Source: a virus
DNA length: 64,000 nt
Reading direction: 5' to 3' (one strand)
Virus record (IMG/VR): IMGVR_UViG_3300025030_000061
Span: 31,052-95,051 of that record
Part shown: piece after piece, positions 43,119 to 62,033 of the stretch
How the letters are laid out: each line of letters starts with the position of its first letter
Numbering within the stretch: position 1 is the stretch's first letter
The notes under the pieces: model-generated
What the model was told of the DNA's origin: nothing
Seen by the model: only the letters and a program-made list of their open reading frames with translations
Database searches by the model: none
Position numbers and translations under genes: made by a program

Positions 43119-43826
43119 TTATGCGCCGATGAGTTCCCTGACCTCGGCGGGAAGCCGGTCGACGCTCTTGTAGGTGCCGAAGTCGGTCAGGTACCTGGCG
43201 TGGGTCTTCCCTTCCTGGACAGCCTTCTGCAGGGATTCCATGACCTCGGAGATCGATTTCTTCAGTTCGCCTCCGTCATTCTCGGCTGCGGATCCCTGGC
43301 CGAGCCTGGCTGCGTTGGGAGCCAGCGGGGTGGCTGCAATTTCGCTGACCGACTTGGCGATCCGCTCCATGCCTTCGTCCTTGCTCTTGGAGAGGTCCCC
43401 GATGACGCCGGCCAGCTTGATGTTGAGGTTGAGGAGGGAGCCCACGGCCTTTTTGAGCACTTCCATCTCGCCCAGCATGGCGTTGGTCCCGGTTTCCACC
43501 GATTTCTGCAGGTCGGCGTATGCCTCGCTCGCCTCGACGAGCAGCTCGTCCTCGATCTGCTGGCGTGCCTGGGATTTCCGCAGTGTTTCGGCTTCCTCCT
43601 CCGCCTCTTTCGATTTGCGAAGCTCCTCTGCTTCCTCTGCCTCCTGGGCTTTGCGAAGCTCCTCCGCTTCTTCGGTCCCTTCCGCAGGCGTCTCCGATTT
43701 CCGCAGCACGACATCGAACCCTGCGCCGAGTTCTTCCTGCAGCGCTTTGGTCAGCTGCTCCAGCTCGTCTCCGGGGTTGCTGGATTTCGAGAGTGCTTCC
43801 AGCTCCTCCATTGCTTTTTTGAACAT
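43119..43826 (-). CDS. scaffolding protein
   Basis: Acidic coiled coil with 13 hydrophobic-x-K-[S/A] motifs, between protease and capsid. Confidence 0.8.
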   Translation of the reverse strand: MFKKAMEELEALSKSSNPGDELEQLTKALQEELGAGFDVVLRKSETPAEGTEEAEELRKAQEAEEAEELRKSKEAEEEAETLRKSQARQQIEDELLVEASEAYADLQKSVETGTNAMLGEMEVLKKAVGSLLNLNIKLAGVIGDLSKSKDEGMERIAKSVSEIAATPLAPNAARLGQGSAAENDGGELKKSISEVMESLQKAVQEGKTHARYLTDFGTYKSVDRLPAEVRELIGA

Positions 43827-43851
43827 GCCTTCTCCTCCTTCTGTAGTTGGT

Positions 43852-44835
43852 CTAGCTGATGATGCCTGCGGCCTTCAGCGCAGCGCTGATGTCCGGCCTA
43901 CCTCCGGCCATGTCTATGGCCTTTCGTAAAAACGTGATCGCTTCCTGGTGGCTTGCGCCTCGGCACTTCTTGAGGTGCTCGACCGTTCCGGGGATGCCTC
44001 CCTTGAAGGCCATCGTGTCGGGGTCGAAGCATCCGCAGGGGGTGGCAATCTGCTCGGCGCCATAGAGGACCTGGGTGAATCCCCTGTCGAGGTTTTCGCG
44101 CATGGTCGGCGCGTTGCCGTTCGCCATCGGGATCCCGGTGTCGGTCCCCAGGGCCTTCTGTAGCTCCGCCTCGGCCGGGTGGTCGTGACTGCCGCACTGG
44201 TGCCCTGGGGTATGCAGCGGGTGGCCGGGGTGGCAGCGACCGCAGCACATGCTCTTGCGGAAGCACTCGACGGTGGCGCTCATGTTGACCGGCTTGTGCG
44301 TTACAGCCAGGTGTGTCACCAGCGACTTGACGATCTTGTTGCCGTGGCGCTTTATCACTCCGCCTTCCACGGAGTAACTGAGTGCCCGCGGGGCTCCGGC
44401 TTTCTGCAGTGCAGTGCCGAGTTCCCACATCTCGTCTGCCAGGCGGGTCTGCTCGCTCCTGGTGTTCCCGCTCGACTGGAGCAGCTCGCCTTCGACGTAG
44501 AGCCCCTTGTCTCGGATCTCCGCCTTGGTCGGGTATCCGATGATGAACGGCATCTTGCCGCCGCTGGATCCGCAGCTTGGGCATTTCCGAAACGGGGAGA
44601 CGTGGCCGCATTGGAGGCACTTCGCCTGGTGGTCGTAGTTGAGGAAGCCGGTCGCCATCAGCGGGGCAAAGTCGATGCCGTTCTTCAGCACCACCTCGCC
44701 GTCCTGGTCCATGTCCTCGGTGGAGGCATATCCGCGGATGATCCGACGGTTGCCGTCGCCGCTTTTCCTTAGTTCGACCTCGATCGGGAGTTCGAATAGG
44801 ATGTCGCGCTGTTCTTCTGGCTCGTGCTGTTCCAT
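43852..44835 (-). CDS. prohead protease
   Basis: IRGYASTEDMDQDGEVV, GFLNYDH, IGYP, LSYSVEG, LAVTHKPVN. Confidence 0.9.
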   Translation of the reverse strand: MEQHEPEEQRDILFELPIEVELRKSGDGNRRIIRGYASTEDMDQDGEVVLKNGIDFAPLMATGFLNYDHQAKCLQCGHVSPFRKCPSCGSSGGKMPFIIGYPTKAEIRDKGLYVEGELLQSSGNTRSEQTRLADEMWELGTALQKAGAPRALSYSVEGGVIKRHGNKIVKSLVTHLAVTHKPVNMSATVECFRKSMCCGRCHPGHPLHTPGHQCGSHDHPAEAELQKALGTDTGIPMANGNAPTMRENLDRGFTQVLYGAEQIATPCGCFDPDTMAFKGGIPGTVEHLKKCRGASHQEAITFLRKAIDMAGGRPDISAALKAAGIIS

Positions 44836-44853
44836 GCGGGATCCTTAGAACGC

Positions 44854-44888: not shown

Positions 44889-44915
44889 TAGCTGGACGGG
44901 TCATTTGCCTTACGG

Positions 44916-45110
44916 CTACTCCCCGCTGTTCCCTGCCAAGCGTGATTCTTTGATGATGAGGTTCCCCTTGGGGGTGGCCTCTATGTTTATTTCCCTGCCT
45001 CTGTAATGAAACCGGAGGGGCAGGTCAGTTCGCGCCAGCACAGGGATCGCTGCCTCGTCTGTCTGGATGCTCTTACGGAGCAGATATATCAATCTGGGCG
45101 CTGTCTGCAT
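44916..45110 (-). CDS. small hypothetical protein
   Basis: 64 aa directly after a class B promoter. Contains LLRKS. Confidence 0.5.
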   Translation of the reverse strand: MQTAPRLIYLLRKSIQTDEAAIPVLARTDLPLRFHYRGREINIEATPKGNLIIKESRLAGNSGE

Positions 45111-45119
45111 TTACGTGCG

Positions 45120-45159
45120 AGTGTAGTTTGCTATACGCTACAGTGTCAACACTTTTGCC
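45120..45159 (-). promoter_or_regulatory. class B promoter TTGACA-N18-TACACT, operator inverted in spacer
   Basis: ggcaaaagtg TTGACA ctgtagcgtatagcaaac TACACT. Confidence 0.7.
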
Positions 45160-45463
45160 TTTGCTTGTATTTGTTTTTCTTCTGGTTCTTCAGCGTGCCC
45201 CTTCGGTATGGCCGCTCGATGGTGAGGATCATGGTCACTGCCTCGTTGGTGACGAAGCGCCAGTGCTCGGTGATGAAGTATCGAGCCGGAACCATCCGGT
45301 TCTTCAGTAGACGGAGGACCTGCCCGTATCCCAGGTCCTCCTCCTGCGCTGTGCTCATGATCGCCTGGAGCGTTCGGTGCCAGCATATGGGGCGGGTTCC
45401 CTCCCACCGGGTAACAAATCGGTCCCAGGCATGCCCGGTGATCTCTGCCCGGCGCAGGGGCAT
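45146..45463 (-). CDS. hypothetical protein (ITxHAxxRF motif, possibly RelE/BECR-like)
   Basis: EITGHAWDRFVTRW...WRFV...MILTI. Confidence 0.5.
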   Translation of the reverse strand: MPLRRAEITGHAWDRFVTRWEGTRPICWHRTLQAIMSTAQEEDLGYGQVLRLLKNRMVPARYFITEHWRFVTNEAVTMILTIERPYRRGTLKNQKKNKYKQRQKC

Positions 45464-45464: not shown

Positions 45465-46421
45465 TTATCGGCCCAGGGTGGCCAGGACCGATTTCATGAT
45501 TCCGGCGTCCTTGGCGATCTTGAGGTGGCTGTAGTATTCCGGGTCTTCGTCGAGATGCTGGAGCACGATGCGTGCGACCTTCTCCTGGTTGTAGTCCACG
45601 ACGTCGGCGTGCTCCTCCTCGTGAAACATGCCGTCGCAGAACTCGTCGAGGCTGTATTTGTTCCAGTCGAGGCCCATGGCGTCGCCGATCTGTTTGCAGA
45701 TGGCCTCGCCGGATTTACGGAGCGGATCCTGGACGGCGGAAAGCCCGTCATAAGTGGCATCCCTCTGCTCGATCACGTCCTGTGCTCTCTGTCTTAGCTC
45801 TGCCTCGGTGAACAGCCGGCCGGGTCCTTCCATGATCCCGTTTGGAGATTCGGGGGGCGGCAGGTACCGGGTGTTGTCCAGGCGCTCTCCCTGGCGGGTA
45901 AACGCTGCCTCCTTGAACTCCTCGAAGGGCCAGATGCTCATGCTGCCAAAAAACTCGGGGCAGTCGTATGCGGCACAGAAGTGGCGCTTGGCCTCCTCGG
46001 GGCTGTTCAGTCCCAGGAAGCACTTGTCCTCGTCATACGCATCAAATGTGGGCGGCTTGTTGGTATGCACCACGTAGACTTCTGGCGCCTGATGGTCGGG
46101 GCCTATGAACACGTCGAGCTGGTCGCCGTCGGTTCCCTTGGTCCCCTTGATGTACCCGTAGGGGAGACTCATGCGGCTCATGCCCTGGGTGCCGTTGTGT
46201 GGGTCGTGCCACTCCCGGATCCGGGAGCGTCCCGTCTCGATGCTGATCGGGAGCCCGTTAAAGTCGATGCTTCCCTGGAGGGGGCGAGCCTTCATCAGCA
46301 CGGCCGGGTGGCGGATGCCTCCCTGGGTCTTCAACCACAGCTGGTACTCCTCGTCGGCCTTAACCAGACGCGGGTCCTTTGGTGTTTCTGCACGCAATGC
46401 GTGCGATTTGAGCAAACGCAC
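45465..46421 (-). CDS. head cargo protein: polyvalent-type inorganic pyrophosphatase (InPase) plus DUF5661-like domain
   Basis: GLPISIE...YGYIKGTKGTDGDQLDVFIG...YDEDKCFLG and FCDGMFHEEEH...HLDEDPEYYSHL. GTG start after AAGGAGG. Confidence 0.78.
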   Translation of the reverse strand: MRLLKSHALRAETPKDPRLVKADEEYQLWLKTQGGIRHPAVLMKARPLQGSIDFNGLPISIETGRSRIREWHDPHNGTQGMSRMSLPYGYIKGTKGTDGDQLDVFIGPDHQAPEVYVVHTNKPPTFDAYDEDKCFLGLNSPEEAKRHFCAAYDCPEFFGSMSIWPFEEFKEAAFTRQGERLDNTRYLPPPESPNGIMEGPGRLFTEAELRQRAQDVIEQRDATYDGLSAVQDPLRKSGEAICKQIGDAMGLDWNKYSLDEFCDGMFHEEEHADVVDYNQEKVARIVLQHLDEDPEYYSHLKIAKDAGIMKSVLATLGR

Positions 46422-46422
46422 G

Positions 46423-46521
46423 TTATTTACCCTCCTTGGCGGGGCAGTCGTTGCATTCGAGGCCGCAGCCTCCCGAGCACATTCTTCCGTTACCCTTGGG
46501 GCAGATGAAGCAGGTCGCCAT
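46423..46521 (-). CDS. 32-aa six-cysteine peptide
   Basis: MATCFICPKGNGRMCSGGCGLECNDCPAKEGK, GAGGAG RBS, fills the gap exactly. Confidence 0.55.
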   Translation of the reverse strand: MATCFICPKGNGRMCSGGCGLECNDCPAKEGK

Positions 46522-46525
46522 GCTA

Positions 46526-46768
46526 TTACTTCTCCTCCTCGGGTTCTCCCCAAGATTCGCCTGCCTTGTACTCGTCCTCGGTAAAACCGGGGATCCTTTC
46601 TCCGCCGCGCTTGTGGGCCCCGCGCCAGAATCCGGGAGGCGGCAGGTCTCCGTCTGCCAGGTCCCAATCCGTTTCCAGCGTATCCTCGCCCAGCATCCCC
46701 TCTGTGCCGTCTATGACGTCATCCGGGACCGGGTCGCCTTCCTGGTGCTCGAAAAGTGCTTTCGTCAT
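46526..46768 (-). CDS. small acidic protein
   Basis: GAGG RBS, 80 aa, directly downstream of the polyprotein. Confidence 0.6.
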   Translation of the reverse strand: MTKALFEHQEGDPVPDDVIDGTEGMLGEDTLETDWDLADGDLPPPGFWRGAHKRGGERIPGFTEDEYKAGESWGEPEEEK

Positions 46769-46828: not shown

Positions 46829-49800
46829 CTAGTTCACGTAGCGGGCGAAGCGGCGCATAGTGCTGTCGTCGGTAATGTCGAGCGATCCGTACCAGTTGGT
46901 GCCTAGCAGCAGCGCCTTGCCGAGATCGTTGCCGTTGTGCTTCATATCGGCGATCGCCCAGATCGACTCGGGGTTGCTGCTGGTCAGCAGGTCACCGACC
47001 TTGGCAGCCTGGTCCGGTGTGAATTGCCGGAATGTGCTACGGCGGCCTCCGGCTGTCACAGTCTTGTCGCTCGTCTGCATGAAGGAGAGGTTCCGTTGGA
47101 CCTGGTTCTTGATCACCTGCAGGGCGTTGGCGGTCGTCGCCTTGAATCCGAAGCGTGCCCAGGTGTACCCGCCGACATCGATGTTGGCGTGGACGTCGAC
47201 TCGGGTTGCTCCGATCACTTTGTAAACTCCCATCGATGCGCGGAGAAAGGCTTTGCCGCTGTTCCCTCCTGATGTGCCGGCCTGGAAGTAGGAGTGGTCC
47301 ACCACCACCTTTCCGGTGGATTGCTTGGTGAATGTGCGGTCAATCCTGGTCCCGTCGCTGCCTCTCATTTCTACCGCTATCATCCTGTCATCGTAGGACG
47401 ATACGGAGACCCGAAAGCTGGTGGTTCCGCCGTAGTCGGCGAGCATCGTACCGAGCGCGTGCTTCAGCTCGTCTGGGGAGTTGAGCCCCATGACGTTCTG
47501 GGCCTTGGCTCCGATGGCCGGCCAGTCGATGCCCCATCCGCTGATGTTGGCGCCTGGCACGCCGTGTGCCTTGAATCCGCTACGAACGAGCTTGGTCTGT
47601 AGGTTCGTTAGTGCTGCCCGGTTCCTCTCGTTTGCCTCTCTGGCGGCTCTGTCCCTTTCGACCGCTGCCGTGCGTTCTGCTGCCTCGCGCTGGGCTCGGG
47701 CTTCGGGTGTGTCCGGTACCCAGGTCCCGGCCTGGTAGTCCCTGGCGCGGTTCTGCATGGCTGCGTCCTGGGTGATGTACCGGCGTGCCAGGTCCCGCTG
47801 CGCCGTGTCGCGGTAGGGTTGCATGGCTCCGGCTTGCCCGCGGTTGTTCCAGTAGCCATCGGTGCCGGTGTAATAAGTCAGGGGGTAATCCGGCCGTGGC
47901 ACGAATCCGAGCTGGGCTTCGGTCAGGTTGAGCGGGTTCGCGGATCCCGGTACCGGGTTTGTGGGCGGCTGGGCCGCGGCTGGTGCTGAGGGGCGCCGGG
48001 TCCTCGGTGCGGGTGCCGAGCGTGGGGTTGCTGTCTCGCGCTGCACTACTGGGGCCTGCGGCATTGGGGTGCTGTTCGCTTCTCCGCTCTGGCTTGCCGG
48101 CTGCGGTGTGCCGTCGCTGTTGTGGCCGAAGTGGCGCAGCAGCAGGGTGCGGTAGTCGTCGGCCGCTCTGGTGTACCCGTTGCTCCTGGTGGTCTGGATG
48201 GCGAGGATGGCCGCGACCGGGTCCTCCTCCTGGGCGGCTTCGTAAAGGCGATTGATCTTGTTCTGCGCGGAGATCAGCGCCGAGTTCTGCATGTTGCCGG
48301 CGGTGATGGTGGTCGGTGCCGGCGCCGCGGCCAGGGTTTCCTCCGGTGGCGCGATATTCCGTGCTGCGTTGGCTGCGGCCAGCAGCTCCGCCCTGTAATC
48401 ATCGACGGCCGCGTAGTTGGCGCGGGTCCGGCTGGTGCTCAGGTTGGCAATCGCATCGATATTGCCGATGAGGGCGAGTTGGCGGAGGTGGGCGGAGCGC
48501 CTGGCTGTCATTCGGTTGCTCTCGCTGGTGTCGGAGAAGTACGGGACCGCCACCTGGCGCATGGCGTCGATCATTGCCTCCTCGGGGGAGAACGCTCCGG
48601 TTGCAGCGTGCCCGAGCCTGACCGCCTCTGCGGATCCGGCGCGGAACCAGCGGCGGACGGGCTGTCCGTCGGGTCCGGCCGTTGTGCGGAGCACGTATCC
48701 GGGGTGATTGGCAATCGCCGTAGATTTGATCAGCAGGCTCCGGTCGGGGATGGTGCGGATCGACTTAAACATCCGCATCTGGAGCATGCCGGAGCGGTCC
48801 CCTGGCAGGTGTTCAGCCATGGGGGTGGTTTCGCCCTTGGTGCCTTCTTCGCGGCGCTTATGCTGGTCTGCTGCGATATCCTCGGCGTCGAGGACCTTGA
48901 GTCGTGTCGCCTCGTCCAGCTTGCCCCAATGAGGCAGGTGGCCGAATCGCTCCCGCTGGAGGCCGCGGACCTCGTGGCTGTCCTGGGAGAAGGAGAGCTT
49001 CTGGCCGTACTTGCGGACGCGGCTGTCTTCGTGCTCCATGACATGCACCAGGGCGCCGTGGGGCGTTACCCGGTCGTAGGACCGGACGCGGGCCTTGATC
49101 AGTCGGGCATTACCGGCTCTGCTGCCTGCCGTTCCTTCTCGGCCTGCTGCTCCTGCTCCTGGGCGGATGCCTTTTCCTTCAGCTTCTTGGCAGCCTTGGC
49201 CTTCCTGTTCGCTTTTGCGTCCAGCCGGTCGGCTTCCTGCAGCGCCCGCTTGAGCAGGTCCCCTTTCCGCTGGTACAGCTTTTTGTCCTTGTCGTTCTCG
49301 GCCATGCTGACCTCCTTGGTGTTTTAGCAGCAGGTGTGTGAAGGCGCGTGCCTGGAATGATTGCGCCTTGTTGAGATCGGCGCCGCTGTTCGCCTGCTGC
49401 AGGGCCTGCTTAACCACCGTCTCCTTCGATTTGGGCTCTGCCGGTCCCGAGAACATATCGACCTCGGGGTTTTCCCTGCTCGCCACCTCCGTCTTGATGG
49501 CGTGGCTTATCCCCTTAAAGACGTTTTCCAGCCGGCTCCTGGATCCGGTGCGGTCGGCGATTGCCAGGATCATGTCGGTGGCGTAGTCGGTCTTGAAGGT
49601 CGGGGTATCCCCGGTGAAGTTGAGGGAGCCCGCGTTGCGGAGGGTGTGCTCCAGCTCGGCGCGGCTCTGTCCCTGGTGGCTCAACGTGTATTCGATCGCC
49701 TCCATCATGTCGGGGACCACGTCGAGGTCGTCGTGCCCCTTCACCTGGGCGAAGTCTCCGACGCAGGCATTCAGGGCCCGGAGTACATTCCGGATCTTCG

Positions 49801-52800
49801 GCTTCGCGCTCTCGGCTTGCAGCTCGGTCAGTACGCTGCTGCCGTACACCTTGGTGAAGACCGCGTTTTGGATCCGCTCGATCGCCTTCTTGTTCGGATC
49901 GCCGTCGGCGTCCCGGAGGCTGGCCGATTCGTTTTTCCCGAGTTTGTCGAGAAATCCGTTGATAAAGTCCATGTTGTCGTCGCAGTAGATCTCGCCGTCC
50001 TCGTCGGGCTGGAACTTCTTGAGGAGGGTGTCGTCTATCCGCTCGGAGTCGGACCATGCTTGTTCGGCTGGGGAGGAGCCGAGGTTGCTGCTCTGGTTCG
50101 CCTCCCTGGCAAACTCGGCGCGATCGGTGTTTGAATCGTTCTCGTCGCGCAGGCGGACCAGTACCGGCTGCTGCATCCCTTCCACGTCTTCCGGTTTGAG
50201 CCCGAAGTGTTCGGCTTCGCCTTTGAGCCATGTCTTGTACTTGTCGGCCAGGCCGCGCTTATAGGCTTCGGAGAGGGCGATGGTGCGGCCGTTCCCACTC
50301 TCAACCGCGCCATCCTTGCCGACGATCGGGGCGCCGTCTGCGGCATTGGCGGAGTGCCCCAGCTGCTCGGGGCGGATGTCGTTCATGATGTTTGCCATCT
50401 GCATCTGGGACGAGAGGCGTTCGCGCTCCCTGGGCTGGATCTCCTGCGGGTAGGCGCGGTTGATGTGCCCCTGGATGGTGTGGCTTGTGGTCAGGTCGCT
50501 CGCTTCCACCAGGGAGTACTTGCTCTGGACCTTGTTGCCCTTCGCGGTGTAGGCCAGGTTGGCGCGTCCGGTGATGAACTTCGGGTCCTTCTTCCCGGTG
50601 TCGGTTTCCTCGACCTGCCTGCGGCCGGCGATGCTGGTCACCTGCCCCTTCGCTTTATCCGGGTCGACGCCGGCGAAGTGGACCTTGTGCTGGTCCCCTT
50701 CCTTGCCGATCGTCACGGTGTGCCCGTCCTTCTCGAACTTGCTGGCGGTTGCCTCCCGGTCCACCTTGTGCCCGAAGTGGGCCAGCAGCTTCTCGCGCTC
50801 GTCGTCTACCGCTTTGAGGTAGGGGTTCGCCCTCGAGGTGTGGATGGTGGTCAGCGCAGCCACTGGGTCGTCGGAGTTCTTGGCCGCTTCGTGCATCTTG
50901 GTGATGATGCGCTGCGCCGATACCAGAGCGGAGTTCTCCTGGTTGGCTCCCTTGATCTTGCCGGGCTCGGGCATGTCCTCTTTTTTGCCGACCGCTTTCC
51001 TCTCGTCCTTCTTGACCGGGTGCGTCTCCTTCTCCTTCCAGCCGTTCCCGCGCAGGTGCGTCATGAGGTCCTCGCCATGCTTCAGCGTGCTCCCCTGGTG
51101 GACCTGCTCGCCGTGTTTGTTCTCGTGGGCAATCACGTCCTGGTGCTTCCGCACGCGGCGGTCGTTGTGCTCCTGGACGACGGTCCCGTCCTGCCTGGCG
51201 TACTGCTGAATGTGGCTCTTGATAAGGTGGAATCGCTCCATGAGGCCGTCGATTGGGCTGGGCGCGTAGAGGTGGACGCTCTTGTGTAGGCTGTTGACGT
51301 CGACCAGGGCTTTCCCCCAGGAGGTGAAGCGCACGGCGCGGTCGTCGAGGTAGATGTCGGCAATCGGCTTGCCGGGGTTGGCTCCCTCGGGCTGCTCGCT
51401 GTTCGTGTTGATCTCGTCGAACGGGATCCCGTTGTCGGCAAGGTATGCCCGCAGGACAGGGGTGTCGGGGCGGGTGGTGTGGATGATCAGCTTCCAGCCG
51501 GCATCCTTGAGCTCGTGCATCCCCTCCGCGGCGCCGTCCACCGGGGGGCCGAATTTGTCAACGCCGAGGAATCCCTGGGAGTAGTCCGCGAGCGGGCCGT
51601 CGAAGTCTATGCATGCGGTCCGCTGGTGCTCGGCTACGGCTTTACGGAGGTCGCCAAGCTCCTGCATGCTTTTTAGGAGTCCGCGCAGGTCCTGCATGCC
51701 GCGAGTCCTGGCGAGGTTCGCCAGCGCCGAGGTCATCCTGACCTTCACCTGGTCGGCGTCCCATCGCTCCCCCTCGGGCGCCGGCATGTTGGCTCGGTTC
51801 AGCGCCGCGGCGATGTCCTGGTCCTTGTAGGCGTGGTCGAATCGGTCCAGGCCGAACTTCATCTTGATGATGGCTGCCGCGATCGGGTCGTCGAGGGATT
51901 CAAGGTGCGTGACGATCCCCTGCATGAGCTGGGCCTTCTTGGCTGCGTCCGATTCGTGCTCGGGCACGGTGGCGGCCTGGGCTGCGATCCCTCGCATGCC
52001 GCTCTCCTGGTCGTCCTCCATCCCGCCGTCGTAGGAGGTGTGTTCCTGCAGGTGCCTCTGGTGGGCGATGATATGGCGCAGCGCGGCGGTCTTCCCGGCG
52101 CGGGTCATAGACATAAGTATGCGGCTATCGCTTCCCTCTCCGGCCAGCGTGTCGCGCAGGTCGTCCAGGTCCTTCTCCGGGGCTCTGCTCGTCTCGGTGC
52201 GGTACGAGTTCATGGCTGCCGCGATGTACTCGCTGTATAGCTCGTTGGCGTCGTTGTCGTCGTTATGAAGGGCTCCCCCCAGGTCGATGTAGTGGGGGTT
52301 GAATCCGTTGCTGGTCGCCAGGTGGGCGAGGGTGCTTTTCATACGGCTGACGAATACCGGGTGGGTCAGGACCTTCCCTTCGTCGAGCTGTGCCCGCTGC
52401 TGGCCAACCTCGGCGCGGCGCCGGCTCTCCTCGGTGGAGATGGTGCTTCCCCCCCTGGAGGTCGTCTCCCTGGTACCGGTGCGGGCAGTTTCAGCCTTGT
52501 GCTCCTCGTCGGTCCAGACGTTGTCCCGGTCGGTGGTGATCTGCGCCGGGCGGAACGTGTAACCATCCCTTACAGGTTGGATGGTGTAGCCTTCCTCGTG
52601 GCTCCCCGCGACGATCGTGCCCTTTTTCTTCCTGGGCTGGCCGGGTACCTTGTAGTAGACCTTGTGGCCGTGCTGCAGGCGGTCGCCTTCCTTCCCTCTG
52701 ACGGTCACCTTCGCCATGGTCGCGGCCACCTGCACGGTCCCACCGTTGGCGGTATGCCTGGTGGTGCCTTCACGGTGGTGGACCTCCTCGTGGGCAGGGG

Positions 52801-52867: not shown

Positions 52868-52898
52868 GCTTCCCTCCGGCGGGTGCTTTGTGCCTGTC

Positions 52899-52938
52899 AT
52901 CCTAAGTCATCACGTAGCGCATATCAAACATTTTGCCC
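52899..52938 (-). promoter_or_regulatory. class B promoter TTGATA-N17-TAGGAT for the polyprotein
   Basis: gggcaaaatgt TTGATA tgcgctacgtgatgact TAGGAT. Confidence 0.72.
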
Positions 52939-53349: not shown

Positions 53350-53354
53350 CCGTA

Positions 53355-53375
53355 TCATTCCATACAACGGTCTTT
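53355..53375 (+). promoter_or_regulatory. class A motif (partial)
   Basis: TCATTC catacaac GGTCTTT. Confidence 0.55.
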
Positions 53376-53419
53376 CTCTACCCATAGCGGCATACAAAAA
53401 ATTTCTCTGGAGGCTTACC

Positions 53420-53872
53420 ATGCTGATCACCGAAACCCATAAAAACTTCCCCTGCGGTTCCAAAGGTCGTCTCACCGTCAAGTCCGATGCCGGCGAAGTC
53501 CTGGCCGTGATCATGACGCCGGTCCAGAAGGCTCGGAAATACTGCGAGGCCAATCCCGAGACGCCGCAGGGTGTCGAATTCGCCAGGGTAATGGTCGTTG
53601 GACAACACTCGGAACTGCAGGATGCCGTGGACGCTCTGGTTCCGGTCCCCGCTCCTCCGGTCCTGGCCGGCGCCAATCCGGAAAACACGGCGCTCGTCTC
53701 CGCGCAGCGCAAACTGGTGAAGCTTCACGAGGCGGCGCAGGGCGACGATCCGGTCCTGGCGCTTGCGGCGATCAAGACCTCCCGCGGCAATAAATACCTC
53801 AATACCTGCGACGACTACCGCGTCGCGCTCCTGGCTCACTTTGCCCAGGCCGGCATCGACGCAGCGGGGTAG
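53420..53872 (+). CDS. stand-alone protein carrying the polyprotein repeat domain
   Basis: GANPENTALVSAQRKL...DDYRVALLAHF aligns by eye with two polyprotein segments. GGAGG RBS. Confidence 0.75.
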   Translation: MLITETHKNFPCGSKGRLTVKSDAGEVLAVIMTPVQKARKYCEANPETPQGVEFARVMVVGQHSELQDAVDALVPVPAPPVLAGANPENTALVSAQRKLVKLHEAAQGDDPVLALAAIKTSRGNKYLNTCDDYRVALLAHFAQAGIDAAG

Positions 53873-55227: not shown

Positions 55228-56454
55228 TTAACTCTTTTTCTTCGCCCAGGGCTCGTGCCCGGTGTATGGGTATGGTCCCAGACAAGCGCACCAGGGGTGC
55301 ATGAGCCCGGCGACCGCCTTCATGGTGGATGCTCCGTCGTCTCTCCCTCCCAGAGCCACCTTGCCGCCTCGGATCGGGTGCGGCTTCCTGCCGATGTTCG
55401 TTGCGTTTCGGATCAGCGTAGAGAGCTTGAAGACCCTGGGGGTCTTGCCGTCGGGCAGGAGGTATGCGTACTTGCATTGGGCGCAGGCGGTCCCCAGGGG
55501 CATCTTGTAGACCGGCTTATCCACGTCTCCGTCGGCCATGAGGGCGTGCGCCATTCCCTGCTTCTGGGCGTCGGTGATCTCGTAGTATGCGACTCGGTCC
55601 CAATCCCTGGCCTTATCTTCCATGGTGCGGTGCAGCTCGCTGGCGAACTGCTGCCACGTCTCCACAGGCCGGGCCGGCGTGGGGATCCCCAGCGCTGCCT
55701 TGCGCTCCTGGTCGAGCACCGTCCTGGTGAGCGTCCTGGCGTGGAAGTCGATCGCCATCTCCCGGACCGTCTCGGCCTGCTGCTTCGCCCAGGCTTCCCC
55801 CACTCGGGTGGCGAGGTCAGCGGCGTTATTCGTGATGTAGTTGGCGGTCTGCTGCTCCGCGATGGCGATTGCGTGCAGGTCCGGCGCCAGGATGTGAGCG
55901 TACCGGGCCATATCCATGACATCGGCGAAGCTCTTGCCGCTCTCCACGACCTGGATCATCTTGCCCATGAGGAAGGCGCTGCGGATGAAGTGCAGGTCTG
56001 CCGGCACGCCAAGGGCGAACGTCTCGGGGGTTATGTCCTGGGAGACGAGGCCCAGGCGCTTCCAGCGCTCCAGCAGGTCCTCGGGGGGCTGGTACCCTTC
56101 GGATTGGAGCTGGGCCGCAATGAATCCGTAGCGGTCGTTAATGGCGAGCTGCAGGCGCCGCAGTTGCTCGGTGGTCAGCGGTTCCCTGGCGGCGCTGGCC
56201 TTGGCGATCGCGCTGGTGGCGATCTCCTGGTGGTAACGCTCTATGTCCGTCTGGGCTGCCTGGAACTCGGCCAACATCCGGTGGTAGAGTTCCTTTGTGG
56301 CGCGGGTGCGGGGGACCTTCGGACGGTTGTCGCATCCTACCGCCTTCTGCAGTTCCTCGATCACGTCGTCCTGGATCCCGCTCGCCGCAGCCATCCCGGT
56401 GATGGCCTTGCAGAGTTCTTCCCCGGTGAGGTTATGCTCGACCTTGAGCTCCAT
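55228..56454 (-). CDS. MuF/gp7-like minor head protein
   Basis: RDWDRVAYYE...ACAQC...HPWCAC. Also LCKA, LQKA and IAKA motifs. Confidence 0.78.
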   Translation of the reverse strand: MELKVEHNLTGEELCKAITGMAAASGIQDDVIEELQKAVGCDNRPKVPRTRATKELYHRMLAEFQAAQTDIERYHQEIATSAIAKASAAREPLTTEQLRRLQLAINDRYGFIAAQLQSEGYQPPEDLLERWKRLGLVSQDITPETFALGVPADLHFIRSAFLMGKMIQVVESGKSFADVMDMARYAHILAPDLHAIAIAEQQTANYITNNAADLATRVGEAWAKQQAETVREMAIDFHARTLTRTVLDQERKAALGIPTPARPVETWQQFASELHRTMEDKARDWDRVAYYEITDAQKQGMAHALMADGDVDKPVYKMPLGTACAQCKYAYLLPDGKTPRVFKLSTLIRNATNIGRKPHPIRGGKVALGGRDDGASTMKAVAGLMHPWCACLGPYPYTGHEPWAKKKS

Positions 56455-58010
56455 TATTTCAGCAGCTCGTCAGCCGCGGTCTGTACTTCGGAGACCGCCT
56501 TCTTCAGATCGTCCTTGTCGCCGCCAGGCTCCTCTCCGCCGGGTTTGTGCTCGGCAGCCTCCTGCTGGGCGGTTTCGCCGGCTTCGTGCGCAGCATCCTC
56601 GTGTTTTTTCCCCTCAAGGAGATGCGTGTGGAGGGCTCCGAAGTGCTTAGCATTGCCGTCCTCCCCTTTATGGCTGTTCCATGCTGCCTGGTGGGCTTCT
56701 GCTGCCTTTTTGTGGGCGGATGCGGCCGTCTGGTGGTCTTCGGCCGTGCCCGTCTTCCTGGCGGTCCTGCTGGCCTTGTTTGCTTCTTTGGTGAGCGCGT
56801 GGGCCTGCCGGCTATCCTCGTGCTCCTTGACGGCCGTGCCATCCTGCTTCGTGTAGCCGGTGACGTGGCTTTTCAGCAGTTCGGCTGCCATGGCGCCGAG
56901 TGCGACCGCTTTACTGAGGTCTTTGTGCATGGTGGGGCTCCCTTGATCAAGGTATCTGGAATAAACTTCTGAAAGATCTAGTTCCTGCTTCAGCACGGTG
57001 GCGACCTTCTCGTGCCTGTTGTTGCCGGCGACGTCATGGCCGTAGAGCTTCGAGCGCAGGATGTTACCGTCTGCTGATATGTCTGGGATGTGGCCGGAGG
57101 CATTGACCGCCTCGATCCTGGGCGCCAGGGTGACCTCCGCGACCGCTCCCAGGAAGTGTACTCGCGGTGGTTTGATCTCCCGGAGAAACTCTATCAATTC
57201 CTGGTTCGAGACGGCCTCCTCCTGGGATGGGATACCTACCACGAAGCGGTCGACGCCGATAATGCCGACTATCTCCCGGTAAGCGTCTGCCAGCGTCTTT
57301 GCTCCTACCTGCAGGGGCACGATGCAATTCGGGTTGAACTGGATCTGGCCGCTGATCCAGTCCCGGTGTTTCCGGTAAAGGTCCGCAGTCCCCTCCTGGT
57401 CCCCGATGATGTCCGGCATGACGAAGTACGGCGGGGTGATGGGCTCCTCGGCAGGGTTCGCTTCCTCGATGGCGTCCATCACGGCGTCGTATTTAGCCAG
57501 GACCTTCTCGAAGTCCATGGTCTTCCACTCTGGCGCCTCGTTGGCTCCCATGAGGGATAGCTGCTGTGCGGTCTGGTGGCTCTTGAGGTTCTTTCTGAAC
57601 AGCGAGAAGGCGCCGGAGTCGATGAAGACCCTAGCTCGGTGGTTCACGATTCCATTTGCTAATGCCTTCATCGCGGGCGCGGTCAGGAGGCCTATGTCGA
57701 TGCCTAATCCCACCTTACCGCTGTCTGCCAGGACGCTGGTCCCCGCCTTCAGTTCGGTGATGCTGGTCATCCCCGATGAAAACCTGGTGATTGATGCGAG
57801 GTTCACCTTCGGTGCGGTCACCTGCTGGGCCGACCGTACAATGTGAGTGCCTCTCGCCTGGATGTGGCTCACCGTCCCCGCGGCGTTACGACGTTCGTAT
57901 GCGGTGTGGTGAGGGTCATGGCTCGCCGAAAAGTCGAAGCCCTGTTGGCTTTTACGGAGGCTGCTGCTTGCGGTCGTGCAGTCTGTTATGGCGTTGGCGA
58001 GTTCGTTCAT
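56454..58010 (-). CDS. head cargo protein with TGT/DpdA-like (queuine tRNA-ribosyltransferase fold) domain
   Basis: FIDSGAFS, MPDIIGD, VPLQ, VGIP, VHFLG, ISADG. Tagged termini (LRKSQ, LLKSH). Confidence 0.65.
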   Translation of the reverse strand: MNELANAITDCTTASSSLRKSQQGFDFSASHDPHHTAYERRNAAGTVSHIQARGTHIVRSAQQVTAPKVNLASITRFSSGMTSITELKAGTSVLADSGKVGLGIDIGLLTAPAMKALANGIVNHRARVFIDSGAFSLFRKNLKSHQTAQQLSLMGANEAPEWKTMDFEKVLAKYDAVMDAIEEANPAEEPITPPYFVMPDIIGDQEGTADLYRKHRDWISGQIQFNPNCIVPLQVGAKTLADAYREIVGIIGVDRFVVGIPSQEEAVSNQELIEFLREIKPPRVHFLGAVAEVTLAPRIEAVNASGHIPDISADGNILRSKLYGHDVAGNNRHEKVATVLKQELDLSEVYSRYLDQGSPTMHKDLSKAVALGAMAAELLKSHVTGYTKQDGTAVKEHEDSRQAHALTKEANKASRTARKTGTAEDHQTAASAHKKAAEAHQAAWNSHKGEDGNAKHFGALHTHLLEGKKHEDAAHEAGETAQQEAAEHKPGGEEPGGDKDDLKKAVSEVQTAADELLK

Positions 58011-60358
58011 TTTGTCTCTGAGACATCCTCGCCCATGTCCTTTAGCCGCTCGACGATCGCTTTGGCGTGCCCTGCGCTGGGGTATTGGTGCAGTTCGTGG
58101 ATCATCTGTTCCACCTCGGCACGGTGCTGCTGCATCTGCGGGTGAGCGAGGAGCCCGGTGGCTGCCGCGTCGACCTGGGTGATGAGGTGCGCGATCTCGG
58201 GGGCTACCGAAACTACAGCGCCTTGGTGTTTGGGGTACGGGTTGTCTATTGGGCTGCCATCAGATTTCGTGTCTCCACTCCAACCATGGTGCCATGCCAT
58301 GTTCTCGAATGTTTCATCCGTGTATGGGTTAGCTCTCTCTGACTTACCTGCCGATTTGGCGGCTTTACCTTCTTCATATTTTTGATGCCTTGTATCGGGC
58401 CTACCGTGGAGCAGCGGTGCCGCATCTTCGCCCTGGATGGTGATCTCCTGTTTTTTGCCGCTGCTCCAGACCAGTTCGGTCTTGTCGCCGGCCTTGAGGT
58501 CGCCGAGGAAGTCTTCGGTGTAGGCCTCCCGCGACTCGATGATCTTCTTGATGTCGGCGGTGGTCATGCTGTTCGGCGCGGGGTAGGTGGGGCGCTGCGG
58601 GATCCTGTACCCGGCGTCCACTTTTGCCTCCTGGACGGCAACCGGCTGTTCATCCTCGGCTGCTGCTTTCCTTCGGGCGATCTCGTTGCCGACCTGGGCA
58701 AGCATAGCGTTGTCCCCGCTGTTAGCGAGTCCAGTCACCAGTTGGTGCAGTCCTTCGTCGGGGACCAGGTGGAGGTTGGCAATCGGGCCTCCCGCTGGCG
58801 CCGTGCCGCTTCCTTCTAGCTCGCTGATGTGCCGGTTCAGCATCCCTCCGACCTCGTCCGCTCCCCGCTTTCCGAGGCGCTCGTGGCCCTGGTACTTGAG
58901 GATGTTCTTCGCCGTCTGCAGGTACTTCTCCGGGGTGCTGTAGTCGGGATGGTCGGTGCTGATGCCGAGCCCTCCGCGGCCTCGCTTGTCGTGCTTCTCG
59001 AAGGCGTCGTGCAGTTCCTTCACCATTGCATGGTGGTCCTGGGGTTGGGTCGGGGCTCCCTTCGCCTGGATCTGGCTAGTGGTGCCTCTCGCATTGGTAC
59101 GGGTGTACGCTGCGTGATGCGGGTTCGAAGTCGCGGTTGCCGGGGCTGCGAAGTCAAAGCCCATCTGCGACTTTCTGAGGAGGTCCGGTCCCGTCTGTGC
59201 CGCGTCCTCGATGGCCTTCAAGAGTTCTTCTATCTTGTTCATGGTGATGTCCTCCTGTCGACTATAAGGCGACGGCGCAGAATGATAGATCGCTTTTTTA
59301 AACTTGCCGGGTCTATAGCTTGGGTTCTTCCCAGCCTCTTTGTCTCTGTGATATCGTTTTAGTGCAAGTTCATTTTCTCTTTGGCGTCGGTCCTCGCTTT
59401 TATACTTTTGAAGCCCGCTATACTTAAAGTTTTTTACCGCACTGCTGCCACCTACATCTTCTTCTGAAACTATTTTAAATGTCCATCCTCTTGCATGGCA
59501 GTACTCCGTTGCTGCTTGCCATTTTGTTTGGTTTATTGCGTAGTCGTGTTCGCATTTCCATTTAACTTCTTCGATTTCTTTACGTCCATCGTTGTATTCC
59601 ACTAAAAAGTCGGGAAGGTATCTGCGGTCCCCATATTTTATTATGGGCACATTTTTGGTCCAGGTCTTGACTGTACCGTCCGCGTCCAGCTGCTGCATGC
59701 GGAGAATTTCTGTTATTGATCCTGCATGTTCCCACAGGCCTGTTTTGGTTGATTGCCACCAGCCTTTAATGCCGCGTGGGGTATAGTTCTTTTTTGCCTT
59801 GATCGCAGACGCTTCGCTCTGTGTTCTGAGCGCGCCTGCCTTTTTTACCTGGCCAGCCACCGAACCTGTACTGGTATTCAAACGCTTACCGATCTCGGTT
59901 GGAGACATTTGATCTTCTGTATAAAGCCTCACCATTTCATTCTGCAAATCTAGTGGGATCTTCATGGAACGTATGAGTCCTTCATTCCGCATCCATCGAA
60001 TTACCGTGGTCTGCGGAATGCCCATTTCATCCGCTATTTGCTTTGTAGATTTTCCCTCTTTGTAGCGCTGTGCAACTTCTTCTTTATCGCCTCGTTCTCT
60101 TAAAGGGACATTGTATCTTGTCAGGATGCTTCTTACTCCATTTGCGGAGCAGGAATGTTTCTCCGCTATTTGTGGTAATGTCAATTTGCTGTTTTTATAC
60201 TGTTGGATAATCGAGTTGGTAGTTTCTTCGCTCAGATAGTGTTTATTTGCAGGGTTCTCCCTTCCGCGTGAGTCTTCGTGTGCGGTTACTATATTCCCGT
60301 TCTTTTTTGTGTATGCCTTGATATGGCTCTTGAGCAAATGCACCAGATTACTCCCCAA
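58007..60358 (-). CDS. head cargo fusion: HTH repeats, TnsA-like endonuclease and C-terminal modules (internal start at 59242)
   Basis: Three HTHs, RYLPDFLVEY...EEVK...KWQAATEYC, internal AGGAGG-ATG MNKIEELLKA, RMF-like YEEG...NPY...WHHGW. Confidence 0.72.
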   Translation of the reverse strand: MGSNLVHLLKSHIKAYTKKNGNIVTAHEDSRGRENPANKHYLSEETTNSIIQQYKNSKLTLPQIAEKHSCSANGVRSILTRYNVPLRERGDKEEVAQRYKEGKSTKQIADEMGIPQTTVIRWMRNEGLIRSMKIPLDLQNEMVRLYTEDQMSPTEIGKRLNTSTGSVAGQVKKAGALRTQSEASAIKAKKNYTPRGIKGWWQSTKTGLWEHAGSITEILRMQQLDADGTVKTWTKNVPIIKYGDRRYLPDFLVEYNDGRKEIEEVKWKCEHDYAINQTKWQAATEYCHARGWTFKIVSEEDVGGSSAVKNFKYSGLQKYKSEDRRQRENELALKRYHRDKEAGKNPSYRPGKFKKAIYHSAPSPYSRQEDITMNKIEELLKAIEDAAQTGPDLLRKSQMGFDFAAPATATSNPHHAAYTRTNARGTTSQIQAKGAPTQPQDHHAMVKELHDAFEKHDKRGRGGLGISTDHPDYSTPEKYLQTAKNILKYQGHERLGKRGADEVGGMLNRHISELEGSGTAPAGGPIANLHLVPDEGLHQLVTGLANSGDNAMLAQVGNEIARRKAAAEDEQPVAVQEAKVDAGYRIPQRPTYPAPNSMTTADIKKIIESREAYTEDFLGDLKAGDKTELVWSSGKKQEITIQGEDAAPLLHGRPDTRHQKYEEGKAAKSAGKSERANPYTDETFENMAWHHGWSGDTKSDGSPIDNPYPKHQGAVVSVAPEIAHLITQVDAAATGLLAHPQMQQHRAEVEQMIHELHQYPSAGHAKAIVERLKDMGEDVSETK

Positions 60359-62033
60359 TGGTTATGTGGAGATATTTTTTTTCTCTCTGATTTTGCTTGG
60401 GCTGCTGTGACTTTTGCATTGAGTCATCTTCTTCTTGATCCTGCTGGTCCTGCTGGTCCTGCTGTTCCATCATGTTAAAAGTATTTATATAATTTGGGAT
60501 CGCGACATCTGCCGGAAAATTCCAGGGGTTAGTATCTGCTCCTTCTTCTTTTTTAACTGGTCCAATAGGGTCAAGCCCTTCTTCCATCCTAGCCTCATTT
60601 CTAGTCATCCATTTAGAGACTCGTGAGGTTCTGACGGCTACTGTTTCTTGTTCGTCATCGGGGTTGAGTCCTACAAGTATCAGTTTCAGATCGTCGTATC
60701 TGGGTTTGATTATGCAATACGTTAGCCACTCACAGAGGTCTGTTAGCGATGGGATGAGGCCGCGTTCCTTGCTGAATTCTATCTCGTCCGACGGGTTGTG
60801 CCCGCCGAGCCCGCTCTGGCCGCTGGTGCCGGCGTAGGTGGAGAGGTTGAGTGTGCTGGGGTGGGCGCCGTAGGCCGCTGCCTTCAGGTTAATCGCCAGC
60901 TCTATCATCTGGTCGAATAGCATGTCCTTCGGGCTTTCGCGCAGTTTGACGCTCTTGACCTCGAAGCCTTCCTTGTCGCCGGAGGGGATTACAGGGAGGC
61001 GCCAGTTGCTGCCAATCCCGCCGGCTTCGGCTAGTATCTGCTGCTTGAATGCGGCGAGGCCTTCCTTATCGTAGTCCCCGGAAACGGTCAGGATTTGCTC
61101 CGGGTAGTTCGTGCGGAACATCTCCCGGTTGTACGTCCATGCCATAAGGAGGGTGGTGGTGATGTCGAGGGAAAGTTCCAGGCGACTCTCGCCGTACCCG
61201 AAGCGGTTGAGCTGGTCGCTCGGGTTGCTGATGTGGACGCTGATCTCGTCAGGGAGGAATGCCGCGGTGATCTGGCCGTCGATCAGCTGAACGTGGGAGC
61301 ACCTGGCGAGGTCGAATCCGGAGGCCTGGGATGCTCGCTCCATTCTGAATCCGTCGTCCTTCCGGTTCTTCTCGTTTTTCTGGGCCCAGGCGCGGATCGC
61401 CTCGTCGACGTTTTTGACGCTCTCCCCGGGGAGCCAGTGGAAGGCAGAGTATCCCTGTCCGTCGCGCCGCTTGTACCGGAGGAGAACCTTTCGGTCTATG
61501 ATCAGCTCGGCGCGGGTGAGGATGCCGACCAGGTCCTTCAGTCCGGTGTGCGGTCGGACCTTCTGAGGGTAGATGTCGAGGTACGGTTCCGGCGTCGGGT
61601 CGGAGAGCAGTTCCTCCATCTCGCGGCAGCGCTCGTCGTCTCCCTTGGTCACCTTATAGTTCTTGTCATCGTGGCGCTTGTGGACGACGCGAAAGCCGAC
61701 CTCTTTGCTTTTCCCCTCGTTGGCCTGCTGCCAGATGCGCTTCTGCTGGTCGATCCTGGCGCGGATCAGAATGGAATCGACGAAGGATTGCCGAGCGGCT
61801 TCATACAATATACTGAATTGTGGGGTACCTTGAGGTTTCTCTCGTGCTCCGTATGCCACCATATTCTGCGCCAGGGCGTAGGTGGAGAAGAAGGAGGCCT
61901 TGTTGTCTTCCTTCTGCATCTTCTTCGCTTCGGACTTGACGAGGTGCTCGATGGATCGGGCCGGCACGATTAGGCCGGCCGGTGTCTCTATCGGGTCGTT
62001 GAGGAAGTCTGAGGTTTTGGGGAGGTGAATCAT
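60348..62033 (-). CDS. portal protein
   Basis: FGYGESRLE, YNREMF, WRLPVI, KDMLF, SKERGLIP, MTRNEARMEEGLDPI. Start after GGAGGG. Confidence 0.9.
   Translation of the reverse strand: MIHLPKTSDFLNDPIETPAGLIVPARSIEHLVKSEAKKMQKEDNKASFFSTYALAQNMVAYGAREKPQGTPQFSILYEAARQSFVDSILIRARIDQQKRIWQQANEGKSKEVGFRVVHKRHDDKNYKVTKGDDERCREMEELLSDPTPEPYLDIYPQKVRPHTGLKDLVGILTRAELIIDRKVLLRYKRRDGQGYSAFHWLPGESVKNVDEAIRAWAQKNEKNRKDDGFRMERASQASGFDLARCSHVQLIDGQITAAFLPDEISVHISNPSDQLNRFGYGESRLELSLDITTTLLMAWTYNREMFRTNYPEQILTVSGDYDKEGLAAFKQQILAEAGGIGSNWRLPVIPSGDKEGFEVKSVKLRESPKDMLFDQMIELAINLKAAAYGAHPSTLNLSTYAGTSGQSGLGGHNPSDEIEFSKERGLIPSLTDLCEWLTYCIIKPRYDDLKLILVGLNPDDEQETVAVRTSRVSKWMTRNEARMEEGLDPIGPVKKEEGADTNPWNFPADVAIPNYINTFNMMEQQDQQDQQDQEEDDSMQKSQQPKQNQREKKYLHITIGE

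Follow-up and report, generated by a model that had tools for sequence, protein, structure and literature searches.

A lysine motif shared by scaffold, capsid protein and large head-block proteins suggests a protease-cut cargo system in an uncultured phage

Why would five large open reading frames (ORFs), lying between the portal and the prohead protease genes of a phage, carry at their starts and internal borders the same four-residue lysine motif as the scaffold and the capsid protein? The question is raised by a stretch of 64,000 nucleotides from IMG/VR record IMGVR_UViG_3300025030_000061 (the window), which is the final 64 kb of a single 95,051-bp contig of an uncultured phage. The motif is [LIMF]-x-K-[SA]; an arrow marks the predicted cut after the lysine, listed positions are those of the first of the four residues, and h stands for a hydrophobic residue. 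On balance we favour the explanation that these ORFs encode cargo which is packaged and cut at several joints by the head protease: the lysine motif of scaffold and capsid protein is found also at the starts and joints of the cargo, and therefore the head protease probably trims and cuts it. An earlier note on this DNA had read the ORFs as polyproteins that are loaded into the prohead, cut there and injected as separate effectors. From that interpretation it stands that the motif is real, is confined to the head block, is common to the scaffold and the capsid site, and lies at module borders; that the cargo enters the procapsid, that its joints are cut and the pieces injected, and that sequences kept after the cut act as tags is what we infer from this.

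The minus-strand genes at 14.6-64 kb of the window form the late block: the portal gene comes first, next the five large ORFs, then protease, scaffold and capsid protein, and last the genes for neck, tail sheath, baseplate and fibres. Because tail sheath and baseplate genes are part of this block the phage has a contractile tail and is a myophage; judged by sequence, its head module is distantly related to the SPO1/phi812 type. All five large ORFs are on the late strand, and their placement between portal and protease genes is conserved across relatives. Four of them are named here by their length in amino acids (aa), p2023 being the 2012-aa protein of the earlier note; the fifth encodes an InPase protein. 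The head genes are the following, in gene order.

60348..62093, minus strand: portal protein (Pfam Phage_portal, E=8e-9; phrog_12, E=1e-22; longest ORF 581 aa).
58007..60358, minus strand: p783, a two-module cargo ORF; motifs at 8, 353, 379 and 394.
56454..58010, minus strand: p518, cargo ORF; motifs at 18, 365, 378 and 502.
55228..56454, minus strand: p408; motifs at 14, 35 and 83.
46829..52900, minus strand: p2023, a putative polyvalent cargo polyprotein of about six modules, likely start MLNGIK at residue 12; motifs at 22, 408, 418, 538, 559, 1176, 1267, 1377, 1390 and 1993.
45465..46421, minus strand: InPase and DUF5661 cargo protein; motifs at 85, 101, 124, 316 and 390 (numbering of the 400-aa ORF).
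45146..45463, minus strand: conserved ORF of 105 aa between the InPase and protease genes, present in relatives; motif count zero.
43852..44835, minus strand: prohead protease, 327 aa (phrog_1028, E=1.7e-41), a distant member of the HK97/S78 type; motifs LRKS at 22, LQKA at 143, IVKS at 168, FRKS at 192, LQKA at 225 and LRKA at 303.
43119..43826, minus strand: scaffold protein, 235 aa, acidic and helical; 13 motif copies at a spacing of about 10-24 residues.
41622..43064, minus strand: major capsid protein, 480 aa (Pfam SU10_MCP, E=1e-11; phrog_752, E=5e-42), SPO1/phi812 type; motifs MLKA at 10 (K12) and LRKA at 27 (K29).

That the motif is a cleavage site is argued first of all by the capsid protein, which is about 25% identical to Herelleviridae capsid proteins and matches the PDB entries 9vel (SPO1 Gp6.1, E=1.5e-24) and 5lii (phi812, E=3e-6). 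In the HMMER alignment its DDLRK29↓A30 pairs with K24↓S25 of the staphylococcal phage phi812 (EDVVK↓SFQTGYG). The phi812 capsid chains in the PDB have 463 residues (5lii) and 439 residues (9row; three capsid entries), an offset of exactly 24, and the virion-derived chain 9row begins at S25, right after the aligned lysine. Hence K↓S or K↓A is most likely the cut of this protease family, and the comparison with K/A511-type capsids that the earlier note had drawn holds. Chain lengths were used here since no usable Edman or other N-terminal data for the processed capsid proteins of SPO1 or A511 turned up in the literature searched. By alignment, the maturation cut of the window's capsid protein is predicted at K29↓A30 (residues 1-34 are encoded by 42963-43064).

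The scaffold leads to the same specificity. Its sites follow, among close relatives, the consensus [ED][ED]-L-x-K↓[SA]-h-x-[ED]. Genomic contexts of protease relatives were taken from IMG/VR loci (designated by L-numbers where needed), and enrichment of the motif in the ORF that follows the protease recurs in 28 related loci. SPO1 is one of them, with 9 sites where 0.77 are expected; the scaffold excess reaches other Herelleviridae-like loci too. The predicted specificity for K followed by S or A thus is a trait of the protease family. The portal protein, whose true start is probably the MIHLPK methionine 20 residues into the ORF, carries the motif in its tails only, namely LVKS at 51 (HLVK↓S, DNA 61920-61961) and MQKS at 559 (SMQK↓S, DNA 60351-60437), the latter 22 residues before the C-terminus.

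The protease itself has no Pfam match at E<=0.01; it has 87 database relatives, the most distant of which carry PF04586 (Peptidase_S78). By their position H69 (in NYDH) and S155 (in SVEG) are candidate catalytic residues; both are unchanged in all of 17 sequences whose identity to the window protease goes down to 33%. Candidate self-cleavage sites are ELRK↓S (K24), FRK↓S (K194-S195) and ELQK↓A (K227); the alignment shows the K194-S195 pair, which comes after the catalytic domain, to be invariant across the family. Residues 224-257 copy the capsid maturation site and the ~30 residues with which the mature capsid protein begins; over 34 aa the two proteins are 59% identical here (E=4e-9). This capsid-like segment (residues 219-260, window 44056-44181) is conserved across the protease family and may let the protease co-assemble with capsid subunits. 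The protease in addition contains two Cys/His-rich inserts which resemble zinc-binding sites, CLQCG...CPSCG (residues 72-89, window 44620-44568) and CCGRCHPGHP...HQCGSHDH (residues 196-218, window approx. 44250-44180); the first is present in a subset of relatives only and the second comes after the invariant FxK-S.

Is the motif then more frequent in the cargo than composition predicts? Every instance named in the earlier note is present, with one more in p2023 at 1993, and the comparison of the head block with tail and early genes that it had proposed shows an enrichment in the head block, expected counts being obtained by shuffling each sequence 1000 times:

Scaffold: 13 observed, 0.76 expected, p<0.001.
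Protease: 6 observed, 0.49 expected, p<0.001.
InPase ORF: 5 observed, 0.48 expected, p<0.001.
p2023: 10 observed, 3.1 expected, p=0.001.
p518: 4 observed, 1.2 expected, p=0.035.
p408: 3 observed, 0.8 expected, p=0.051.
p783: 4 observed, 1.55 expected, p=0.064.

Counts in the portal and major capsid proteins are individually non-significant against shuffles, and the remaining genes of the window (replication, neck, tail) together have ~15 motifs against ~17 expected. Position separates the two groups further: the motif occurs within the first 40 residues of 9 of 10 head-block proteins but of only 6 of the 111 other genes of the 95-kb genome (Fisher p=4e-9). The same distribution is found in pooled relatives, that is in loci whose proteases are 40-62% identical:

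Large ORFs upstream of the protease: 91 observed, 31.9 expected (2.9x).
Protease: 97 observed, 8.5 expected (11.4x).
Scaffold: 153 observed, 10.5 expected (14.5x).
Major capsid protein: 30 observed, 10.0 expected (3.0x).
Neck and tail: 40 observed, 36.8 expected (1.09x).

In the Herelleviridae-like relatives (L020-L051) the neck and tail genes are even depleted of the motif (7 observed against 25.6 expected from composition), whereas those of close relatives are at expectation. A 12-column profile trained on the relatives' scaffold sites gave, in this phage, 11 matches in the head proteins other than the scaffold (5803 aa) and 2 in the remaining proteins (23259 aa); as decisive evidence it was dropped, since the enrichment failed in the relatives' cargo.

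If the sites are joints they should lie between modules, as the earlier note had maintained, and this is supported by Pfam edges, homology blocks and evolutionary breakpoints, structure models being weak here. Alignment ends fall within 3 residues of a site in 8 of 13 cases, a score that 0 of 100,000 random placements matched. The HAD module (p2023 residues 427-542) has been relocated in the 2131-aa homologue of L004, 800 residues further along, where it adjoins a different module and has kept its bracketing K↓S sites. An alignment of five HAD sequences shows no variation in the L-x-K of the 420 site or in the K-S of the 540 site, and the intervening residues vary. In four relatives (L009, L012, L014, L015) parts of p2023 are encoded as separate ORFs; three such split-off ORFs start at p2023 residues 547, 559 and 1390, and in each of them a separate short leader with h-x-K↓S at its end precedes the part shared with p2023. 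Thus L009 has residues 547-2022 as an ORF of its own that starts DDLFK↓SH, and L012 has residues 1390-2022. In L002 and L003 everything after K1392 of p2023 is swapped for the module that follows K396 in p783, so that p783 residues 393-515 reappear there as the C-terminal module of a 1504-aa protein. The InPase domain is fused into the large protein in L006, and in L018 and L014 modules have been inserted or replaced after it, at a K↓SH hairpin. Sites flank each of three modules, HAD, InPase and DUF5661, and the Pfam domain edges in the InPase protein are 4-9 residues from them. Two AlphaFold models (AF2), with a mean predicted local distance difference test score (pLDDT) of 51.6 and 53.7, were excluded from fold searches; in these low-confidence models the sites lie in segments with pLDDT below about 50, as do all five sites of the InPase protein, and the cores of HAD, InPase and DUF5661 reach 54-87.

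The most extensive arrangement is that of p2023, for which cuts are predicted at K24↓S (followed by QLNLF), K410↓S, K420↓A, K540↓S, K561↓S (followed by a hairpin described below), K1178↓A, K1269↓A (again followed by the hairpin), K1379↓S and K1392↓S. The tenth motif, LGKA at 1993, falls within the final module and is unlikely to be a site. Its modules, numbered by residue, are:

25-410: module with a weak, sub-threshold match to a helix-turn-helix (HTH).
421-540 (DNA 51281-51640): HAD-like (phrog_1238 at 420-531), bracketed by K420↓A and K540↓S.
562-1178: 70-aa repeat and ddrB-ParB (Pfam PF18763, E=2e-36, at 787-918; phrog_5143 at 726-1074).
1179-1269 (window 49001-49387): low-complexity segment of ~90 residues between two sites, rich in Gly, Ala, Arg, Gln and Glu.
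1270-1379 and 1393-2023: further modules.

The low-complexity segment may be a disordered spacer or a small peptide that is freed by cutting. Two labels of the earlier note are left unverified: for "sigma-like" (the first module) there is the sub-threshold HTH match, and for "GNAT-like" an Atlas lead at 0.87, each with no Pfam support.

The shorter ORFs are built alike. The leader of p783, MGSNLVHLLK↓S, is followed by the basic hairpin and a first module (residues ~11-355) of HTH repeats and a TnsA-like endonuclease N domain (Pfam Tn7_TnsA-like_N, E=1.7e-14; HTH_23, E=1.9e-12). A joint at residues 349-440 (DNA 59039-59314) with FKK↓A, LLK↓A and LLRK↓SQMGFDF leads to the second module (residues 397-783). 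Residues 376-434 of p783 match residues 1-54 of p518, the leader of which ends SSSLRK↓SQQGFDF (K20↓S21). The first module of p518 extends to about residue 365 and is followed by a joint (DNA 56781-56930) with LSK↓A and LLK↓SHVTGYTKQDGTAVKEHEDSR; its tail is basic and helical, with DDLKK↓A at K504. Pfam and PHROG gave no family for p518, and a likeness of its C-terminus to scaffold residues 184-195 was non-significant (E=0.35). Near its N-terminus p408 has EELCK↓A (K16) and EELQK↓A (K37), and the scaffold-trained profile matches K37. It has no Pfam, PHROG or PDB sequence matches and is possibly a MuF-like head morphogenesis protein; its "MuF" label, which the earlier note had used, goes back to an Atlas feature lead (Phage_Mu_F clusters at 0.94, 163 shared features) and is unverified. 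The InPase gene (start region at window 46278-46667) starts with the GTG at 46421 behind an AAGGAGG ribosome-binding site and encodes 318 aa, not the 400 aa of the longest ORF, and the protein begins MRLLK↓SH. It contains, in 400-aa numbering, InPase at 131-253 (E=2.8e-27) and DUF5661 at 325-383 (E=7.6e-12), and its further sites are LVK↓A, LMK↓A, LRK↓S and IMK↓S, of which the second precedes InPase by 4 residues, the third precedes DUF5661 by 6, and the last is 8 residues away from the C-terminus. A further small cargo protein may be encoded by a 64-aa ORF (44916-45110, minus strand) between the 105-aa ORF and the protease gene, which has a greasy leader and the motif LIYLLRK↓S.

What follows the predicted cut had escaped the earlier note: many sites open a conserved cassette, which is a basic hairpin in some cases and in others a peptide that resembles a clamp-binding motif. 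The hairpin element reads K↓[SA]-H-[VI]-x-x-Y-T-R-K-D-G-T-x-V-x-x-H-[DE]-D-x-R. While searching a word index for the hairpin region of p518 yielded 2 proteins only, an exhaustive profile search of 1.84 billion proteins gave 780 cluster representatives (E<=0.001). Proteins with the hairpin often have 2-5 copies, and 101 of 281 instances are within the first 35 residues. In 76 of them that were scanned we found InPase, ART-PolyVal, Zeta toxin, ddrB-ParB, SAM lyase, NUDIX, Acb1, PBECR3 and LPD3, which is the repertoire of phage polyvalent anti-defence proteins. Hairpin-linked loci were found with a degenerate DNA pattern; in four of them (L071, L079, L087, L093) large leader-bearing ORFs are followed directly by genes for a protease, a scaffold rich in K↓S/A and a capsid protein that contains ELQK↓AL. 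This head design recurs in the cultured Pseudomonas putida phage Dolphis, whose gp116 adjoins a 1222-aa ADP-ribosyltransferase protein and begins MLVK↓S...LVK↓AH with the hairpin.

The second element is K↓S-Q-[LM]-x-[LF]-F, as in SQLNLF of p2023 (52805-52867) and SQMNLF and SQMSLF of relatives; SQMGFDF of p783 and SQQGFDF of p518 (window 59039-59314 and 57831-58010) are looser fits. Other lineages have SEQLSLF and SEQLDLF at the same place (SEQLSLFDMPV, SEQLDLFDMPV; L074, L093). The docking consensus for bacterial sliding clamps is of the QL[SD]LF or QLxLxL type, and these peptides resemble it, so that clamp binding is a putative property. The motif also precedes unrelated sequences without hairpin, namely InPase (LLK↓ARPL), DUF5661 (LRK↓SGEA) and HAD (LRK↓A, LHK↓S).

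In the explanation we favour, the HK97-family serine protease would recognise a hydrophobic residue, any residue and lysine, followed by serine or alanine. Inside the procapsid it would chop the scaffold at its 13 sites into peptides of ~10-25 residues, take the first 29 residues off the capsid protein, and trim itself and the tails of the portal protein. The five ORFs between portal and protease would be head-internal cargo that is incorporated into the procapsid, each opening with a short greasy leader that ends in the motif, and the longer ones being chains of modules joined by it. Stripping of the leaders and cutting of the joints would then free separate modules (HTH and TnsA-like nuclease, HAD-like phosphatase, ddrB-ParB, InPase, DUF5661 and several unassigned ones), which would leave with the DNA at infection, many of them keeping an N-terminal tag, the small basic hairpin or the peptide resembling a clamp-docking motif. 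Precedents that speak for this are the processing of head proteins in SPN3US (PMC10052503) and of DarA in P1 (PMC9024508, PMC12810830), and a 2811-aa polyvalent protein that is abundant in phi24B virions (bioRxiv 10.64898/2026.04.10.717836). As the cut follows lysine, ordinary trypsin-based virion proteomics is blind to it. More tentatively still, we suggest that the joints represent a widespread cut-and-tag cassette, composed of a leader or linker, h-x-K↓S/A and a hairpin or clamp-type peptide, which would be the unit of module shuffling. Proteases of the HK97 family would free each module in the capsid with a fresh N-terminal tag, and after injection this tag might guide the module that carries it, either to DNA or to the replication clamp of the host.

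Several results weigh against cutting at the joints. In the hairpin cassette the lysine is present in 265 of 272 instances and the S or A in 254 of 272 (~150 diverse proteins). Being near-invariant, K-[SA] could serve the cassette's own structure or function and not cutting; and as the cassette would remain part of the mature module, conservation of the motif could in part be due to something besides cutting. The scaffold-trained profile is unenriched in the relatives' upstream cargo ORFs (0.24 against 0.21 per 1000 aa), which means that the acidic context of the scaffold sites is absent from most cargo sites. The 1441-aa large homologue of L009 carries the motif at expectation only (2 against 2.35), and the motif lysines of p2023 (6 of 9 conserved) do not clearly differ from its other lysines (43 of 86). 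Given the poor AlphaFold models, the statement that the sites lie in linkers rests mainly on Pfam edges and homology blocks. Finally, the gp245 protease of SPN3US cuts 14 sites in nine head proteins, and the cuts identified there, self-cleavage apart, all remove N-terminal propeptides and do not separate modules (PMC10052503).

But could the protease remove the leaders and nothing else, as in T4, SPN3US and P1? The internal copies would then be leaders carried in by module fusion, and the big proteins would remain essentially whole, uncut or partly cut. This alternative, which survives best and to which we would give a modest share of the probability, is in keeping with the SPN3US precedent and with relatives that encode the same modules as separate ORFs with a leader each, since fusion automatically puts a leader at the joint. 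Polyvalent proteins moreover have been detected in virions with fragmentation unreported (phi24B gp47, bioRxiv 10.64898/2026.04.10.717836). It does not readily explain that the internal L-x-K-[SA] is invariant while the surrounding linker changes, nor that some internal sites (ELGDLRK↓A, DVNSLHK↓S) lack a preceding leader-like hydrophobic run. Furthermore, a protease that cuts 13 scaffold sites has no evident way to spare identical exposed sites in co-packaged proteins.

We consider it improbable that the motif is part of an uncut docking or targeting cassette, kept because it binds DNA, a host protein, the portal or the inside of the capsid, with convergence or coincidence accounting for its likeness to the scaffold sites. 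Near-invariance of K and S/A is the conservation expected of an integral part of such a cassette, and the missing acidic context would fit too. Yet the motif precedes the hairpin-free InPase, DUF5661 and HAD sequences and also ends short C-terminal tails, the sole feature common to all these contexts is a motif of the protease type, and at every locus that shows a head module next to a hairpin ORF the scaffold has K↓S/A.

Even less weight can be given to the possibility that the ORFs are late cytoplasmic enzymes or mobile insertions which are not packaged, the motif excess reflecting shared ancestry of repeated segments. Part of the excess does stem from repeated cassettes, and TnsA-like nuclease and HTH domains make up homing-type genes as well. 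In addition, GC content is 0.54-0.55 in the p783/portal region (58000-62000) against 0.60-0.64 around it, with 0.61 at the third codon positions of p783 (GC3), as expected of a recent insertion and suggesting that the HTH and TnsA-like nuclease module was recently acquired. However, the position between portal and protease is conserved, p783 itself opens with leader and hairpin, 9 of 10 head-block proteins have an N-terminal site, and ddrB-ParB and InPase have been assigned to packaged phage polyvalent proteins (Iyer et al., PMC5512222). That another protease, an embedded zincin metallopeptidase or a host enzyme, processes the cargo seems very improbable, for although Iyer et al. 2017 propose embedded metallopeptidase (MPTase) domains as processing enzymes (PMC5512222), we found no peptidase family in the five cargo ORFs (E<=0.01 for whole proteins, E<=1 for unassigned segments), and the joint motif is that of the head protease's own substrates.

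How does cutting of packaged cargo by the head protease relate to known systems? Processing of co-assembled internal proteins by a head protease at its consensus is known from T4 gp21, phiKZ/SPN3US and P1 Pro; what we propose as new are a Lys-specific protease of the HK97 type, swappable enzyme chains with internal sites, and retained tags. In T4, IPI-III and Alt are prohead-core proteins with a short leader that ends at the gp21 consensus site and are injected with the DNA; some internal proteins act against host defences, and the scaffold is chopped at the same motif. The leader ending at the head protease consensus is what is predicted for the cargo here, whereas T4 differs in cutting after Glu (L/I-x-E) with a protease of a different family, in a single N-terminal cut per protein, and in having neither multi-module chains with internal sites nor a conserved tag retained after the cut. 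The RNA viruses and retroviruses likewise cut one product at a short repeated consensus into proteins that act separately, retroviruses inside the assembling particle, but this is a mechanistic analogy only, without homology, and the products here would be accessory cargo and not a replication or structural core. Related by descent are the Herelleviridae (SPO1, phi812, K/A511), with homologous capsid protein and protease, a scaffold rich in [LIV]-x-K↓S and a Lys cut at the aligned position; they differ in genomes of 130-150 kb and Gram-positive hosts, and in the loci examined their genes upstream of the protease have 1.7x the motif expectation and long chains of enzyme modules are absent. In phiKZ (gp175) and SPN3US (gp245) many head-internal proteins are cut at a short consensus that is repeated in propeptides. 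There the consensus is A/S/G-x-E, genomes exceed 200 kb, self-cleavage apart only N-terminal propeptides are removed, and the cargo is a structural "inner body" and RNA polymerase subunits, not swappable enzyme chains.

The Dar system of P1 (DarA, DarB, DdrA, DdrB, Hdf, Ulx) also packs large anti-defence proteins in the head, and the ddrB-ParB of p2023 is named after DdrB. The P1 genes differ in being separate and scattered over the genome, a joint motif or multi-site cutting is undescribed for them, and capsid and protease belong to other lineages. P1 Pro removes an N-terminal piece of DarA, and DarB has a sequence at its N-terminus that targets it to the capsid (PMC9024508, PMC12810830); PMC9024508 also gives a summary of targeting in T4. 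DarA/Hdf and DarB families did not turn up in the Pfam and PHROG scans of the head block, which included no search specifically for them. Finally, chains of effector domains (InPase, ddrB-ParB, ART, NUDIX) beside head genes, predicted to be packaged, are the hallmark of polyvalent proteins (PMC5512222), and the window has HAD-like and ddrB-ParB modules in p2023, InPase with DUF5661, and HTH with the TnsA-like nuclease in p783. Different from the embedded zincin metallopeptidases proposed there, none was detected in the cargo ORFs. Neither the hairpin nor the clamp-like element is described in Iyer et al. 2017 (PMC5512222), which has no lysine joint motif and no role for a capsid protease at joints either, and the hairpin cassette is uncatalogued.

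Two further features of the window are worth recording. Within the head block a 184-aa ORF on the opposite strand (53318-53872, plus) has a ~70-residue domain (N-x-ALVSAQ...AL..I.TSR.N.Y....DDYR..LL.HF) that occurs twice in p2023 (residues 644-713 and 1527-1596); having neither leader nor cut motif, this ORF may encode a cytoplasmic copy of a packaged module. In the early/replication block (1391-4398, plus) a C-5 cytosine DNA methylase (E=1e-24) adjoins a DUF5131 protein (E=1e-49), a pair that possibly forms a self-protection module additional to the packaged cargo.

If the joints are indeed cut, the phage would pack its enzyme toolkit as a few long genes and deliver the tools separately with the DNA, before phage gene expression, and the tools could be swapped by recombination at a four-residue joint. 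This would explain how giant polyvalent proteins are processed, a question open since 2017, and a simple rule would predict the mature injected anti-defence proteins from sequence; the joints would also offer a natural cassette for loading foreign proteins into phage heads. And if the cut-and-tag cassette is what we tentatively take it to be, it would be a general delivery grammar common to hundreds of phage lineages.

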